Made by a program: the position numbers and the translations under genes. DNA of 64,000 nt from Octopus vulgaris (lineage: Eukaryota), in the NCBI GenBank assembly GCA_951406725.2, contig OX597832.1:27590001-27654000 (forward strand), written 5' to 3'. Below are positions 1,467 through 61,279 of the stretch, in pieces. Position 1 is the stretch's first letter. Each line of letters begins with the position of its first letter. The notes below the pieces were generated by a model. That model did no database searches, was not told the origin of the DNA, and was given only the letters and a program-made list of their open reading frames with translations.

Positions 1467-1828
1467 ACTTGTGCCAGACTTTGGCTTCGTCAGTTACATA
1501 AACAGCTGGACGGGGCGCCACTGCATAGTCCCAAAACCCCCAACATTGCCATCAGGTTACAGAACCGGATACTTCAATATCCTCCCGCAAAGCCTCAGAG
1601 ACCTGCACGGGATGGATGTAGGCTTTTTCAAAACAAAACCGGATCCCCTTCTGTCAAGAGTTCTGGATGAACCTACCTCAAGGCAAGAAACACAGATGAG
1701 GGCAGCAACGTCCAGACACCCTCATCTACCAAATGTCACAGATCAGAGGAGGTTTAGTGAAAGTATAGCAAAGTAGACGGCGGTGCCCCAGCATGGCCGC
1801 AGTCCTTGAACAGAAACTAAAAAGAAAA
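1467..1828 (+). mobile_element. 3' end fragment of a CR1/L2-like LINE (ORF2 C-terminus plus tail)
   Basis: Translation FNILPQSLRDLHGMDVGFFKTKPDPLLSRVLDEPTSRQ resembles the (W/F)N.LP...FK..LD..L terminus of CR1-group ORF2. It is followed by the tail ggcggtgccccagcatggccgcag and an A-rich end. Confidence 0.65.
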
Positions 1829-1838
1829 TCCATACATA

Positions 1839-2378
1839 GGCGCAGGAGGGCTTACCAGCCACAAGATTCTGGGTTCAGCCCCACTGCGTGGCACCTTGGG
1901 TAAATGACTTCTACTATAGCCTTAGGCCGACCAAAGCCTTGTGAGTGGATTTGGTAGGCGGAAACTGAAAGAATCCTGTCGTGTATATATGTATATATAT
2001 ATAAATATATATATATACATGTATGTATGTATATATGTATGTGTGTATGTATGTATGTGTGTATGTATGTATGTATGTATGTATGTATGTATGTATGTAT
2101 GTATGTTTGTTTGTATGTATGTATGTATGTATGTATGTATGTATGTATGTATGTATGTATGTGCGTGTGACTTTGTATCTGTGTTTGTCACCCCAAAATC
2201 GCTTGACAACCGATACTGGTGTGTTTACGTCCCCGTAGCTTAGCAGTTCGGCAAAAGAGACCGATTGAAAAAGTACTAGGCTTGCAAAGAATAAGTCCTG
2301 GGGTCCAATTGCTGGACTAAAGGCGATGCTCCAGCATGGCCACAGTCAAATTCCTGAAACGTGTAAAAGTGTCAAAGA
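1839..2378 (+). mobile_element. tRNA-derived SINE family A with internal (TATG)n
   Basis: Head ggcgcaggag...gggttcagccccactgcgtggcaccttggg and tail gctccagcatggccacagtcaaa; highly similar to copies at 52909 and 53800. Confidence 0.9.
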
Positions 2379-3048
2379 ATATATGTATAGTGTTCTTGTA
2401 CATATCTGTATTGTATATTAGCATGCAGATGTGTATGTTTGTATATATAAGTATATATGTATGTGTGTGTGATTATGTGTGTGAATATGTGTGTGTGTAT
2501 CTGGGTGGATATAGAGATGGGTGGATGGATTCCAATACAAATGTATGTTTATGTGTCGTTCACTGATTCACAATCACCTAAACACACTTTCGTGCCTACA
2601 CTGTAAATTTGTGCATCTTTATATACATACGTATACATGTGTGTGTATATATGTGTGTGTGTGTGTAGTGTGTGTGTGTGTGTCTATATGCATACATACA
2701 AACACACAGACAATTCAAATTCGAGTGTGCATATATATTATATGTGTGTGTGTGTGTGTATTCGAGTGTGCATATATATATATTTGTGTGTGTGAGTTTG
2801 TATGTGTGTATGTGTGTGTGCATGTGTGTGCGTGTTCGTGCGCGCCCTCCATGTTCACAAATCCAAAACTGATAAAGCAGTTTGTTGTATAAAAGTGTGT
2901 CTACACACTTCCGGGAGAGTTGAGATAGTTACTCTGATAAACTCTAGCAAATCTGTGCTATATACAATCATATATACATACATTATATTCATTTGTATGT
3001 GTGTGTGTGTGTGTGTATGTTTATATATACATATATATACATATATAC

Positions 3049-3107
<59 letters not shown>

Positions 3108-3186
3108 CATATACATATATACATGTATATGTATATATATACTTACATACATATATATTATATACATTCATATATATAATATATAT

Positions 3187-3270
<84 letters not shown>

Positions 3271-3989
3271 CGTACACACGTCTACATTTGTGTGCGTGTT
3301 TGTGTCAATGTATGGATGTACGTATACGCCGAAAGAAATATCCAGCTTGCCGTTGTACAGAAACCAAGTTGGTGAATTTGCATAATATATGCAGTCGCAA
3401 AATAAAGAAAAATCAAACCATATAAAAACACGCGTTTTCTGCCATCAAATAAAGAAACCAAGTTGGAAATACATTCGCTCTAGATTTGCTTCTATTCTAA
3501 CCGTACATATTAAGTCTGCTCGCTCGCCATGACATATAAGTTTTAGACCGTGCCGGAAGAGCAGATTCGCTGCGGTGCTTCACTAAACTTCCTGCAGTAT
3601 TTGCTTACGCACTTATAATGGTGTTAGTCAATAGAAGGGAACAGCGCTCGTCTCTTCTTTTGGCTGTTAGTAAGAGTAATAGAGTTTAAGGTTGATTTTT
3701 TATCATCTTGTAACAGTCATTTATATCGACGTATGTATTTTTAGGTTCAAAACATACCAAGATATTTGTTGGTTTTTCTAATTTTCCTTGGTATTTGGGG
3801 AATATTTTCATACCGATGTTAGCCTTGACTGAGAAGACCTATAATCAGAAATCTCCCATCTATTATCTTTTCGGACATAGTGTATCTTGGATTGTATTTT
3901 CGAATGTGCCAACTAAAAGTGTTGATGTGTATAGGCACATTTGTGTGTTGAAATATTTTAACCTACAAAGTTGTGATAAATCCAAGGCT

Positions 3990-4810
3990 GAAAATAAATT
4001 TCTTTGACATTACATTTAATATAAGTAAACACTACTAAGAAACAATATACATCAATCAAACTTCTGATCATCCGTCCACAATTCTAAAACGTCTCACAGG
4101 TAACATTAGCAAATATTTTTATGATTAAATTAGGAAATATTTTTAAAATATCGCCTCCACACAAGAACAATGCCTTAGCGCCAAGTGGGTTTTAAAATAA
4201 TCGGCAATATATCGAAAAGACTATCAGAAATCATTAAATAAAAACAAAAAAATATTATGATATAACCCAACATATAGTATAAATATACTTCAAATATATC
4301 TTACTACACAAGTAAAATGTATTTTCCCGTTTCACATAGATACCATAATATCCAGTTATAACTTTTTAAATAATATATAGGCTTCCAAATTTCTCACAAT
4401 ACTCGGAATTCTAGAAACACCACACAAGCACAACAAACTAAATGCTATAGTAGAAATATTTTGTCATTTCCGCAGAAAAATATATCAATGGCACTGGTGT
4501 AGAAAACTGATGCAAAATAACAGAAGATATTAAAAACATTTTCAAAATCTGATATTCACAACATGTTTGTTCATTCTTCACCAAGAATAAAATCTACTCT
4601 ATATCACTGTTCGACTATTTACATATGCAAATTTGAAGATAGAAGAGTCAACGACGTTATTTTAAAATGAAGTTTTGTCGAGTAATCAGGACTATTATAA
4701 TTGTGGTAACAATAGGTGCAATTTATGTATCTCTGAAAAATTCAAAATACTAAATACACCAACCAATGTTTTGACCATAAGTGACGAGATAAACTGCATA
4801 GAAGAAAATT
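3990..4810 (+). mobile_element. Degenerate Penelope-like element (RT C-terminus to GIY-YIG end)
   Basis: Broken frames give NFFDITFNI, TIYINQTSDHPSTILKRLTGNISK, NNALAPSGF and CNLCISEKFKILN, matching PLE motifs (FLDVTL, SNHP..I.K, YN.AL..SG, CNLC..EK..I) in the expected order. Confidence 0.75.
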
Positions 4811-5961
4811 ACTTCTCATCTTTCAAATAGTTTTACCGAATCCAGTTCACTTCTAAAACAGGAAGATAAATTTCCCCTTAGTAAACGATGACAATATATG
4901 GCGAGTTCCTCTGTTGATAAGACATCCGACGAGAGTAAATATCTCCTGAAAAATCTAGAAACTTTTTCACCTATGAATTGGAAGTCATTTCCACCGGTGG
5001 ATTTCTCTAATTAAACTCGGGAGCAACATGGCAAAATCATAAAAATACCATCACATGATCTGAGGTAACCAATGAAAATGACATGTCAAACACTTCGTTC
5101 TAATGCTTTCTTAACAGTCCCGCGATACTTCGCTTCAATGAATGAAACGAAACGGAAACTACGTTGCGTAAATGATTCCAAAGAAGGAGAGAGTCGTCTA
5201 CTTCATTACATCACAGGATTTCAGTTATTGACTACGAAAAGATGAAATTCAAATTTGGCATTGATGAGATTTGAACTGAGAATGCTTGGGACAAAATAAC
5301 AAGGGATTCTAAAGGACTCAGCCGACGACTCAGTTCGCTTGGTCCTATTTAAGTACAACACTTTATTTACATCTAAAAGAATGTCCTACTGAAACTTCAG
5401 CCAATCACAGAGAAATTTCAAAAATCGAATATGATAGTTTCTAATCATCATTACTACGACTCTAACTGAATTGAATTTCATTGGCCAATCATTATCGATT
5501 ATAGGAATGATACAAAATGAAACAGAAAACAAACAAAAAGAACAAATAAAAGCAAATAAATAAAACATAACACAAGTCTTTTCTTTTTTTCCTATAATTC
5601 CTGCAAATCTTTTGATTTTTTTCTTCCATTTTTCTCTTCTTTCACGTCCTCCCACCTTCCACGTCGTCTGCAGCCGAGAGGATTATCCAACTATATGTCT
5701 ATGCATTTGTACGACCGATAATTAATCTCCAGGCCGTTCAAATGAGCTTTTTTTTTTCATCCTTATATATTCATTCACTTTTTTATTTTATTGGAATTAT
5801 TTAATTTTTTTATTCTTTTCTCTTTTCTCTCGTTCACTTCTTGTTTCTATTTCTCCTTCTCTACTTCTTCCTTTTCATCTTCTTCTTTTGCTTTCTCTTT
5901 TTCTTTTTCCCCTTCCATCTTTTTCTCTTCTACTTCTTCCTCATCATTATCATCACAACCA

Positions 5962-57550: not shown

Positions 57551-57776
57551 ACGTGACAAAGGGTATTGACTAGCACAGCCTTTGCTAAAAATAAGAGTTA
57601 AACCAACTCTAAAACCACAAAAGCACTGTTTTAATGAGTTAATCGCAATACAACTGAGTATACTAGGGACTTACCTCCCTTTGTCAGTCATTAAGACAGT
57701 GCTTTTGTGGCTTTGAAGTTGTTTTAACTTTTATTTTTAGCAAAAGTGGCGCTAGTCAGAACCCTCTGTCACTTTT
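57551..57776. repeat. Inverted repeat, ~87-bp diverged arms, near (TA)n
   Basis: gtgacaaagggtattgactagcac...cacaaaagcactgttttaatga versus tcattaagacagtgcttttgtg...gctagtcagaaccctctgtcac. Confidence 0.85.
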
Positions 57777-57817: not shown

Positions 57818-58067
57818 GTATATATATATATATATATATATATGTACATATATATATATAGATTAATATTAAACAGCAGTTTGCAATGTTTCACCAAAAA
57901 AAGAGTATTACAAATGTCACTAGATGTGACTGGGGTGTTAGGAAACAACTACATTGCTAGAAATAAGAGCTAAACCACTCTAATGCTGTAGTTAATGCAC
58001 CAAATGAAAACCTACACTAACAGAGACCATAATTGTCTGAAAAGTGCCATATATGTATGTGTGTATG

Positions 58068-58117
<50 letters not shown>

Positions 58118-58673
58118 TACACACACACACACTCATATGCATGTGTGTGTGTATATATATCTTTTTATGTATGTGTGTGTTTGTGCGTGTATGTGTTAGT
58201 ATGTATGCATGCATATGTGTATGTATGCATATATATATGCAGTTATCTGAGCTGTTAAAAGTTTAACATTGTTAAGAATGTATATAACATAAAATATATA
58301 TGTATATATAATACAAAAATGCCTTGTACAGTTCCCCACCCCCAAAATATATATTTTCATATAATATACAAAAATTAATCCGGTTATATATATATATATA
58401 TATATACATACACATAATTAAAGGATAACACCATTAAAATTAATGAATTTTATCAGTATCCAGCATATAAAAAATAACTTTTTAGGTAAAATTTATATAC
58501 AGAGGTATATAATTGCATTCTATATAATTACATACCTATATATATATATATCAACAATAAAGGAACGGCCATAATAGGCCATTCACCCACTAGAAATAAC
58601 AGCCAAAGCTTCAACCGCAAATAAAAGTTAATTCCGTAAACCAGGAGAAAATTTAAAAAACATTTACCCTGTA

Positions 58674-58780
58674 ATTTCTTATACGATATACCGTTTCATC
58701 TGCTGATTAATGGTAAACTAACCTGATTAAATTAAATCAAGCCAATCTTCCACAGGCCCTCAGATTCATCAGTAAGAAAT
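58674..58780 (-). ncRNA. Type I hammerhead ribozyme motif (mirror copy, sense to the lectin-like gene)
   Basis: Reverse complement of 59134-59240. Confidence 0.78.
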
Positions 58781-59133
58781 AGCCCAAGTCGGAACAGATA
58801 TTTTCACGAGGCATTTCCGACCTTGCCAAGTTTATATCTGACCTAAAATTTTCAAATCGTCGCACTCGCGCCAAATTTATCGGCAGCAAATAAATATAAG
58901 CCGTCGATTCCATTACGGAATTAACCAGAAAATTCATAATTAATCAATATAGGGTGGCACCCTATATTGATTAATTATGAATTTTCTGGTTAATTCCGTA
59001 ATGGAATCGACGGCTTATATTTATTTGCTGCCGATAAATTTGGCGCGAGTGCGACGATTTGAAAATTTTAGGTCAGATATAAACTTGGCAAGGTCGGAAA
59101 TGCCTCGTGAAAATATCTGTTCCGACTTGGGCT

Positions 59134-59240
59134 ATTTCTTACTGATGAATCTGAGGGCCTGTGGAAGATTGGCTTGATTTAATTTAATCAGGTTAGTTTA
59201 CCATTAATCAGCAGATGAAACGGTATATCGTATAAGAAAT
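59134..59240 (+). ncRNA. Type I hammerhead ribozyme motif with extended stem II
   Basis: Stem I atttctta/taagaaat (8 bp); CUGAUGA 59142-48; stem II atctg/cagat enclosing 58 nt; GAAA 59217-20; stem III acgg/tcgt with tata loop; GUA 59230-32. Confidence 0.8.
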
Positions 59241-59598
59241 TACAGGGTAAATGTTTTTTAAATTTTCTCCTGGTTTACGGAATTAACTTTTATTTGCGGT
59301 TGAAGCTTTGGCTGTTATTTCTAGTGGGTGAATGGCCTATTATGGCCGTTCCTTTATTGTTGATGTTGAACTTAAAAATGGTCTATGACTATTTAATTTT
59401 TTCCTACTAGGCCGCTGGTGGCAAAAGAATTCTACAAAATTTTTTTGCCACCCTATATTGATTAATTATATATATATATATATATCATGTTGTTTACGTT
59501 CTGTCACATCCTGTGACCACATATGCATGTATATACATATATATGTAAGTATCTACATATATGCATGTATATATGCATATATATATTATTTATATTAT

Positions 59599-59636: not shown

Positions 59637-59783
59637 TCATCACCATCATTTAATGTCTGTTTTCCATGCTGGCATGGAATGGATAGTTTAAAAGGAGTTG
59701 GCAAAGCCAGAGGCCACACTAGATCCCTTGTTTTGGCTTAACTTGGTTTCCACAGCTGGATGCTCTTCCTAATGCCAATCACT
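59635..59783 (-). mobile_element. Degenerate copy of the repeat at 63062
   Basis: catcatttaatgtctgttttccatgctggcatgg...acagctggatgctcttcctaatgccaatcact. Confidence 0.75.
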
Positions 59784-59866: not shown

Positions 59867-61218
59867 TCAAAATATTTCAGTTTCAAGTGCCTGCTGTTTA
59901 TTATCTTGCTGCGGTTCTCTGTATGGTACCGGCTGACTCGGTTGAGTGACATTTTCTCGACTCCGCGTAACAGGTCTCGGTGCTGGGGTAGGTTTGTACT
60001 GTCTTTGATGGGGTCGTGCTATCGAGTCCAAGTTCTCCCGGCTGCCTTGCATCGGCTGACGTCTATAGGGATCAGCAGCATTAGGGTTATACAAAACACC
60101 ACCATAATCATTGTAATCCCTAGAAGTGGGTTCATGGTTAAAAGGCTCAGGGCTATTTATACGGTCCCTGCTGCCCCTTTCATAAGTGTTGCGCTGGAGA
60201 TAAGCAACACCAGGATTCAATGTTTGGAATGCTTCTGGGATCCTTTCTTGGACATTTCTGGAAGGATCACCATAGCGGTAATCTGCAAGATTTTCACGAC
60301 TACCAAAGTTTGAAGTTCTTCCTTGATTGGGGACTATATTTATGTCCCTTGGCACTACTTCAGGTCTTCGTGGGGGTTCACCGCGAATGTAGGGACTGGG
60401 CCTGGCCCTTCCATCCAGGGATTCTTTGCTTCCATCACGTGACCTTTGGTTTATGATTTTGGAGAAACTTTTGAATTCCTCAGAAGGTTCGTAGTTATAG
60501 AGTGGCGGTGGCGGTGAAGGTGGTTTCTCTACAGCCGTCTGCATTTGGTTTATGATGGGTTTCTTGTCAAACTCATTGATATACAAACAATGTTCACTCG
60601 GAAGTTTGTTTTGCCTGTTCAGACCCAAGTTAGCATAAATATCCCACTCATTAGGTGGTAAAGACTGCTGGGTCACTCGTCTCTCTTCCTGCTCTCTCTC
60701 TTTCCACACCTGATTCATGACATTTGTATTATAACGAACAGCTGAAGGGCGGTCCTTGTCGCCATCGTCGATACTAATATAGCTTTCATCATCCGTAAAA
60801 CTGACATTGTCGTTGCTGTCAGTGTCGTTGCCGTTGTCGTGACCGTATGGAATCACTGTGGTCTTTGGGGTTTTGATGGCAAACGGAGGCGAGATTTCCG
60901 TGGCCTCTGTATCAAAAGTGTTGAACTTAGACTTATCGATTGAGTTTATACTGATGTGGTCATCCAGGGTGCCCACAAAGCTGATGTTTGTTTGACTGTT
61001 CTGTATGTTGCTCTTTGACCAGTTGGAGGTCATCTGAGATCGAGATCTGGCCGAAGAGCGTAACGAGGCACAACGCTGGAGTCGCATGTCTTTGCGTATT
61101 TTAGACTTTTTGAGCCAAAGTACAATCAATATAATGATGATGATGACAAGTACACTGAAGATGCTGGCCGTTAATGCAATGATGAGTGTGTAATCGGTTG
61201 TCTTGACAACGAAAGGAT
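59867..61218 (-). CDS. Terminal coding exon of a single-pass membrane protein (TM helix plus long cytoplasmic tail)
   Basis: Acceptor ctttctctcttgtttcag at 61219, phase 1; about 450 open codons of non-repetitive sequence; TM YTLIIALTASIFSVLVIIIIILIVLWL then KKSK; stop TGA at 59869-67. Confidence 0.93.
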
Positions 61219-61279
61219 CTGAAACAAGAGAGAAAGTTCAGTTTTAATATAGAATTTCATTCCACATTATTATTATTAT

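Follow-up and report, generated by a model that had tools for sequence, protein, structure and literature searches.

Introduction

Metazoan non-LTR retrozymes, as presented in the main text of Cervera and de la Pena (2020; PMC7229834) and in the preprint of Li et al. (2026; 10.64898/2026.07.22.740005), do not code for protein and consist of tandem units of low GC, every one of which has a type I hammerhead with a short palindromic helix III suited to dimer cleavage; they co-occur with Penelope-like elements (PLEs). Their units measure 170-400 nt in the first report and 51-972 bp in the second, in which cleavage was obtained with only one of nine retrozyme dimers tested. PLEs, in the text of Craig et al. 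(2021; PMC8557442), are found with an inverted 5'-truncated copy and a one-sided tail of 30-40 bp; the EN+ PLEs Neptune, Nematis and Naiad also form partial tandems, and a (TA)n preference is stated there for Naiad. The same text describes non-autonomous Chlamys elements such as MRC1, which depend on PLEs, insert as head-to-tail multicopies and have 3' ends like those of their autonomous partners, in clades described without canonical hammerheads. In the main account of Frangieh et al. (2024; PMC11167929), a PLE protein starts at two internal sites, whose positions define the tail, and both strands are nicked and extended; Poseidon_Ac has an AT-rich target, a predicted dimer and no strand difference in start-site use, its ribozyme cleavage is dispensable in vitro, and no RNA-seq ends occur at the ribozyme site. 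The enzyme that mobilises retrozymes, the tandem and inverted structures and tails of PLEs, and hammerhead cutting in vivo are called open questions in these sources (PMC7229834; PMC8557442; PMC11167929; Li et al., 2026).

Here, we describe a palindromic locus of Octopus vulgaris, located in a 64-kb stretch of contig OX597832.1 (the window, to which all locus coordinates refer). The family to which it belongs resembles the retrozymes described above in its non-coding, low-GC tandem units, its type I hammerhead motif, its short palindromic helix III and the presence of PLEs in the same genome; its 491-nt unit is longer than those of PMC7229834 and lies inside the range of Li et al. (2026). As judged from sequence, it has what defines a non-LTR retrozyme, namely non-coding tandem hammerhead units of low GC without an LTR. 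Unlike the retrozymes described in these texts, it has a stem II extended by about 60 nt, and its insertions are mostly two-armed, with (TA)n at the fixed ends A and B; the main text of PMC7229834 does not contain the word 'inverted', which occurs in the preprint of Li et al. (2026) only within a reference title, and 'tail' is absent from that preprint. The family has partial tandems, an inverted 5'-truncated copy, a tail at one end and a (TA)n preference in common with the EN+ PLEs of PMC8557442, as far as that text describes them, and differs from them in its lack of an ORF, its tail of about 105 nt instead of 30-40 and its majority of inverted forms; no local autonomous element homologous to it was found. 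The two internal starts, extension of both strands, AT-rich target and predicted dimer would be common to Poseidon_Ac, as it is portrayed in PMC11167929, whereas the octopus family shows strict use of one start site per strand and 5' ends clustered just past the predicted cleavage site. Presumed PLE dependence and head-to-tail multicopy insertions are shared with the Chlamys elements. The main texts of the literature searched contain no retrozyme with inverted arms and a one-sided tail, a strict one-site-per-strand rule, a 105-nt tail or cleavage-keyed 5' ends. We are fairly confident that the locus is a both-ended insertion of a PLE-mobilised non-LTR retrozyme, likely moved in trans by an RT/GIY-YIG enzyme.

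Results

Anatomy of the palindromic locus

The two arms (58550-58956 and 58958-59364) are 407 nt each and 100% complementary around a 1-nt G spacer, and (TA)n is present on both sides (Table 1), as a sequence-only reading of the window had proposed. Because both flanks are (TA)n, a target-site duplication is unreadable. The A arm and the B arm, as delimited in the table, share a 2-nt overlap at the palindrome centre, and the B arm consists of a full 491-nt unit followed by 21 nt of the next, i.e. unit positions 1 to 512. The recurrence of the centre motif reported in the sequence-only reading is real, but its 'short terminal direct repeats' are in fact the start of a second head-to-tail unit (1 + 21/491). 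Similarly, the copy that had been called inverted and truncated is indeed inverted, and truncated at its inner 5' end, whereas its outer end is a fixed terminus of the family, site A. Site A is unit base 407, and site B lies about 105 nt further on.

Table 1. Features of the locus, in window coordinates
Feature	Position	Strand	Remark
Left (TA)n target flank	58537-58551	.	sequence
A arm, unit positions -3 to 407, 410 nt	58550-58959	-	outer 3' end is fixed site A
Mirror hammerhead motif	58674-58780	-	predicted cut after 58682
B arm, 512 nt	58958-59469	+	outer 3' end is fixed site B
Full unit, 491 bp	58958-59448	+	within B arm
21-nt repeat	58958-58978/59449-59469		start of unit and of next unit
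Type I hammerhead motif, extended stem II, self-complementary loop III	59134-59240	+	predicted cut after 59232
Hammerhead stem I	59134-59141/59233-59240	+	8 bp
Hammerhead core	59142-59148, 59217-59220, 59230-59232	+	CUGAUGA, GAAA, GUA
Hammerhead stem II	59149-59153/59212-59216	+	stem III short
14-bp GU-rich stem II extension	59166-59199	+	compensatory and G-U substitutions retain pairing in sister family
'Tail' between end sites A and B, about 105 nt	59365-59469	+	on one arm only
Right (TA)n target flank	59468-59485	.	sequence

No ORF of at least 120 aa was found in the element, which thus lacks the RT and GIY-YIG reading frame of an autonomous PLE. For minus-strand read-through RNA of the locus, the predicted fold is the full-length duplex of 407 bp (-764 kcal/mol). 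The motif is present on both strands, as had been claimed for the ribozyme, but a whole-locus transcript is predicted to sequester both copies in this hairpin; activity would therefore be confined to transcripts starting near the palindrome centre.

A large and young family

The 491-bp unit, which does not code for protein, was used to search the genome (2.80 Gb, 227 contigs). The genome-wide copies that had been anticipated were recovered: scoring of 40 of the 1166 candidates gave at least 194 matches, with 92-100% identity among the 150 matches listed. They are dispersed over many contigs, often as head-to-tail arrays that repeat every 492 bp or so, and arrays reach at least nine units. The exact end-B pattern followed by (AT)n was present in 845 copies, the corresponding end-A pattern of the window's subfamily in 409, and a hammerhead pattern that includes the sister family gave 2,997 matches; the reversed-pattern control gave 0 in each case. 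The sister family (L191-L195) has a 473-474-bp unit, is 70-74% identical, uses the same end sites and carries compensatory changes. In the unit alignment, inspected by eye, the two end sites come after a hairpin and have a CCT-N2-ATTG-like motif in common in both families. Contigs of public runs X15, X4 and X1 contain end A and end B, each with (AT)n, and hammerhead variants are also present in public contigs; a single 472-nt contig from a second organism (run X4) covers the unit. No run is recorded as RNA, although X1, X4 and X7 may be RNA runs.

Many more hammerhead families with a palindromic loop III were encountered in the genome (L099, L102, L119, L204, L206, L207, L211), several of them with a long stem II. 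At L197 (2900-3450), another two-armed (TA)n insertion, with a tail of about 100 nt, is sited at the 3' end of a PLE.

No description of hammerheads or retrozymes in cephalopods, or of inverted retrozyme insertions, was found in the literature searched, to which most subscription papers and Repbase do not belong, and neither 'hammerhead' nor 'ribozyme' occurs in the main text of PMC13282606, an annotation of octopus repeats. The supplements of this annotation or of the retrozyme papers may list the family under another name.

Most insertions have two arms, one ending at A and the other at B

Insertion architecture was studied on two contigs (C1 and C2), at loci anchored on one canonical end: 30 places anchored at A, out of 409, and 90 anchored at B, out of 845. 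After removal of 5 duplicates and of 9 loci extending beyond the sequence examined, 106 of the 120 were resolved: 89 have two back-to-back arms and 17 are single-armed. The two-armed palindrome is the normal insertion form, since 89/106 resolved loci are inverted. The second arm carried the other canonical end in 83 of the 89 inverted loci and was truncated or rearranged in six; the same end was never present twice (0/89). One A/A locus (L006/L029) was observed among 30 top-match loci, which counts against strict A/B pairing. The B/A design was repeated in the three inverted loci checked from the sister family and a third hammerhead family (L191, L193, L197). Fixed 3' ends, a one-sided tail, 5' truncation and an inverted and tandem layout, the marks of a non-autonomous PLE, are thus present, and the locus at 58550-59469 is an ordinary member of its family.

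The hammerhead motif is conserved

A complete hammerhead core with an 8-bp stem I had been reported in each arm, and was verified on the + copy and on its - mirror; a strict hammerhead descriptor had only these 2 matches (the locus pair) in the 64-kb window. The GU-rich hairpin said to extend stem II was also confirmed, with 14 bp. The 'unusually long stem II' proved genuine and is conserved, although it is shared with other hammerhead families of the same genome. The proposed fold check of the region gave z = -3.5 against 200 shuffles; the hammerhead-constrained fold (-29.6 kcal/mol) lies 1.9 kcal/mol above the local minimum (MFE, -31.5). Loop III is predicted to form a 12-bp self-duplex (-13.6 kcal/mol), and this self-pairing layout is that of dimer-active metazoan hammerheads as described in the main text of PMC4209133. 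The circular unit RNA is predicted to be strongly paired (z = -5.4).

The search with Rfam hammerhead models that had been suggested gave no match, even at E<=10 on a 200-nt region, which is likely due to the long stem II. An Rfam match is no defining biochemical feature of the class. Rfam microRNA matches were rejected as hairpin and microsatellite noise under their own cut-offs.

Absence of core conservation among copies, together with absence of cleavage, had been named as grounds for abandoning the sequence-only reading; the core proved to be conserved. With one motif counted per locus in 74 loci, which as kin share changes and so are not independent events, nine core positions were invariant (74/74), C3 was kept in 71 and G5 in 73, and position 7 was free (T32/A17/C16/G9). 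Position H17 was A in 46 loci and C in 28, never G, so that the cleavage triplet is GUA or GUC. Loop III was one of three distinct self-complementary 12-mers in 47, 20 and 6 loci, and was broken in one. Stem II shows G-C/A-U exchange between loci, and stem II and its extension hold their pairing through double and G-U changes. The stem covariation that had been looked for among copies was present, with double changes at 11 of 111 consensus pairs across 15 units, a count to which the same kinship applies. Stem II closes with an A-U pair in most of the 74 loci, whereas the usual pair is G10.1-C11.1 in the text of PMC4209133; this is a point against the favoured reading. The motif has the CUGANGA/GAAA/NUH core, three helices and an open helix I, and thus reads as a candidate type I hammerhead; the constancy of the core and of helix pairs, including G-U pairs, suggests that the ribozyme is under selection.

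Inner ends cluster downstream of the predicted cleavage site

The cut is predicted between unit positions 275 and 276, and inner ends pile up 5-28 nt downstream. When 5' ends were called strictly by k-mer in 85 A arms and 85 B arms, 27 of the former and 22 of the latter fell in unit 276-305, a stop rate 4.8 and 6.2 times background, respectively, compared with five A arms and five B arms in unit 246-275 (5.2 expected). No strict end fell at 276-279 in these 170 arms, the earliest being at 280; eight ends placed exactly at 276 by looser calling were alignment artefacts by the strict method. The pile-up was mostly first-pass (44/134, versus 4/40 on later passes, p=0.004), and 4 of 17 single-arm loci also begin in the 276-305 zone. 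Run-off from cut RNA followed by trimming fits the pile-up best; stalling at the ribozyme fold is a possible source.

The element could thus be the same and its inner ends result from stalling of reverse transcriptase (RT) at the folded ribozyme, or from microhomology joining in AT-rich sequence, rather than from cleavage in vivo. We consider this rather unlikely, though less so than the other alternatives. Either process would agree with ends that begin at 280-283, the base of stem I (3' strand 276-283), and not at 276, and with the dispensability of cleavage for the Poseidon PLE in vitro in the account of PMC11167929; joining would be helped by the 80% AT content of 276-305, where inverted 4-mers are possible at 15 of 30 positions. 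However, there was no excess of ends at stronger predicted helices (14 bp at 318-331 and at 229-242, and 11 bp at 481-491) or in the equally microhomology-rich intervals 36-65 and 456-485. These controls gave 0-2.9 stops per 1000 nt, against 9.8-10.7 in the ribozyme zone, and the first-pass bias and the single-arm loci argue against both processes.

The two arms of a locus probably derive from one template

Divergence was measured in two identity groups, the second of which is heterogeneous. It was 0.32% and 0.51% between the opposite arms of a locus, 0.23% and 0.45% between its tandem units, and 2.34% and 4.85% between loci. Some of the identity inside loci could be due to gene conversion. 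Minor variants were shared by the two arms 261 times and confined to one of them 102 times. Among 74 clean loci, 27 have an A arm that outreaches its partner by more than 50 nt, and 15 have a B arm that does so. The stops of the two arms coincide on the RNA, to within 15 nt, in 19 of the 74 loci (permutation mean 5.9, with 0/5000 reaching 19) and, outside the ribozyme zone, in 8 of 44 (mean 1.0). A unit-length RNA has exactly one A and one B; the pairing seen would therefore be forced.

A single priming, after which the cDNA folds, copies itself and has its second end trimmed at site A by the endonuclease, would explain why the arms of a locus are nearly identical and why junctions are often almost symmetric, and endonuclease-mediated resolution is what Craig et al. 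suggest for tails in the text of PMC8557442. Such a course is improbable. In those 27 of 74 loci the B arm, which would have been the template, falls more than 50 nt short of the 5' reach of the A arm, and the tail of the B arm is missing from short A arms; a single snap-back cannot explain the arms, because neither is contained in the other. Two primings on one RNA thus remain the preferred origin of the arms.

PLEs of the same genome

At least two intact PLE families that combine RT with a GIY-YIG domain at the C terminus are present, encoding proteins of 781 aa and 775 aa; for the latter, 76/76 scored matches were at 100% identity. The target of both families is (TA)n, and each has two fixed 3' ends, separated by 43 and 32 nt, respectively; opposite ends are paired in all four of the inverted copies observed (L116, L129, L220, L223). 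Both proteins carry the CX2-5CxxC linker motif, which the text of Craig et al. (PMC8557442) gives for Neptune and Nematis. No hammerhead was detected in these two active families with a relaxed descriptor, and the octopus unit has no DNA similarity to them, nor to 40 GIY-YIG-anchored loci or stretches or 24 further PLE stretches; the search for a GIY-YIG partner scored 150 of 6136 candidates. That no autonomous element similar in sequence to the unit was found in this search, and that the PLE tails of 43 and 32 nt are shorter than the retrozyme tail of about 105 nt, counts against the favoured reading. The two families show that the machinery and the rule exist in this genome, not which enzyme moves the retrozyme family. 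PLE fragments near retrozyme loci (L005, L077, L082, L201) were rejected as partner, as they appear to be separate neighbouring insertions (L077 and L201 were read).

Several other features of PLEs were observed. Both active families have a separate ORF upstream of the RT-GIY-YIG ORF, of 479 and about 454 codons from stop to stop (L114:1268-4971; L217, about 1700-5315), and the 479-codon ORF belongs to no clear Pfam family. Their pLTRs carry no hammerhead despite the C-terminal endonuclease. One PLE protein gave 30,320 first-look candidates, which, with identity of 100% in all 76 scored, points to a very recent PLE burst. PLE-like proteins that public databases file under bacterial gill symbionts of bivalves (P0030, P0041, P0054, P0075) probably come from host DNA within the assemblies.

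Flanking sequences

A terminal coding exon of 456 codons lies at 59867-61237 on the minus strand, with a predicted membrane segment and a cytoplasmic tail recognised by eye. It is 82% identical to the Octopus bimaculoides LOC106882674 protein, 'C-type lectin domain-containing' according to one source, and had no match in a protein search among longer proteins. The insertion may sit in the 3' UTR of this gene. On the other side, a 24-nt direct repeat (92%; 57582-57605 and 57954-57977, 372 bp apart) flanks a (TA)n block and is possibly the remnant of another repeat.

Discussion

The proposal of a young, non-autonomous PLE- or retrozyme-like insertion is supported by a near-identical 491-bp family with fixed A and B ends in (TA)n and no ORF. 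A fuller scheme joins these features, and we give it about an even chance of being right as a whole. One unit-length RNA, circular or ribozyme-cut, would be used by a dimeric PLE enzyme from two fixed, hairpin-flanked starts, one per strand; rolling would produce tandems, cDNA joining would produce palindromes, the 5' ends would be a footprint of cleavage in vivo, and the A/B rule would explain the one-sided tail of PLEs.

Under this scheme, multimeric transcripts would self-cleave to unit-length RNA, probably as double hammerheads via the palindromic loop III, and part of this RNA would be circularised. A PLE protein, probably dimeric, would bind one RNA and nick the (TA)n target, which is self-complementary, on both strands; reverse transcription would be primed internally, at site B on one strand and at site A on the other. 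Each cDNA would then drop off, or reach the cut 5' end of a linear monomer and give short arms ending at unit 280-303, or roll round a circle and give tandem arms. Joining of the two cDNA 3' ends, through short microhomology or with filler, and fill-in would leave a palindrome with the 105-nt tail on one side. At 58550-59469, the A arm would have run for 410 nt and the B arm for 512 nt, meeting almost in register.

The remaining explanations place the origin of the locus elsewhere. Amplification at the DNA level, as a satellite, fold-back or rolling-circle DNA element with a chance hammerhead-like motif and arrays made by local unequal crossover, would suit the tandem arrays of at least nine units, and local tandem amplification of retrozymes is proposed in the preprint of Li et al. 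(2026; 10.64898/2026.07.22.740005). It is very improbable, as the 3' ends are precise and the 5' ends variable, with truncation keyed to an RNA site; the catalytic core and RNA pairs, including G-U, appear to be under selection; and the copies, spread over many contigs, lack terminal inverted repeats common to both ends. That the host has adopted the element for regulation, as a ribozyme or hairpin in the neighbouring gene's 3' region, is highly doubtful. The element begins 398 bp downstream of the stop codon of the minus-strand exon, and the nearest AATAAA signals on that strand fall within it, but an ATTAAA at 59649 precedes it, hundreds of such insertions exist and this one is very young, and the 407-bp duplex predicted for read-through RNA would block the ribozyme. 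A fold-back assembly artefact, suggested by the 100% identity of the arms, is scarcely credible: it would mirror the tail and the flank, neither of which is mirrored here, and the same asymmetric A/B design recurs in 83 other loci with arms differing in length and in a few bases, and in two other hammerhead families (L191, L193, L197); ends A and B with (AT)n are also present in contigs of public runs (X15, X4, X1). The palindrome is real.

The PLE-mobilised retrozyme favoured here bears on the questions listed in the Introduction, since the octopus family offers hundreds of very young insertions with measurable rules. The same genome has intact (TA)n-targeted PLE enzymes, and the retrozyme cycle can therefore be reconstituted. 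The octopus lineage is known for heavy A-to-I editing, and the family seeds hundreds of perfect long inverted repeats, which are potential double-stranded RNA. If the joint reading of one RNA with two starts is true, the family would be a direct genomic record of the movement of an animal retrozyme.
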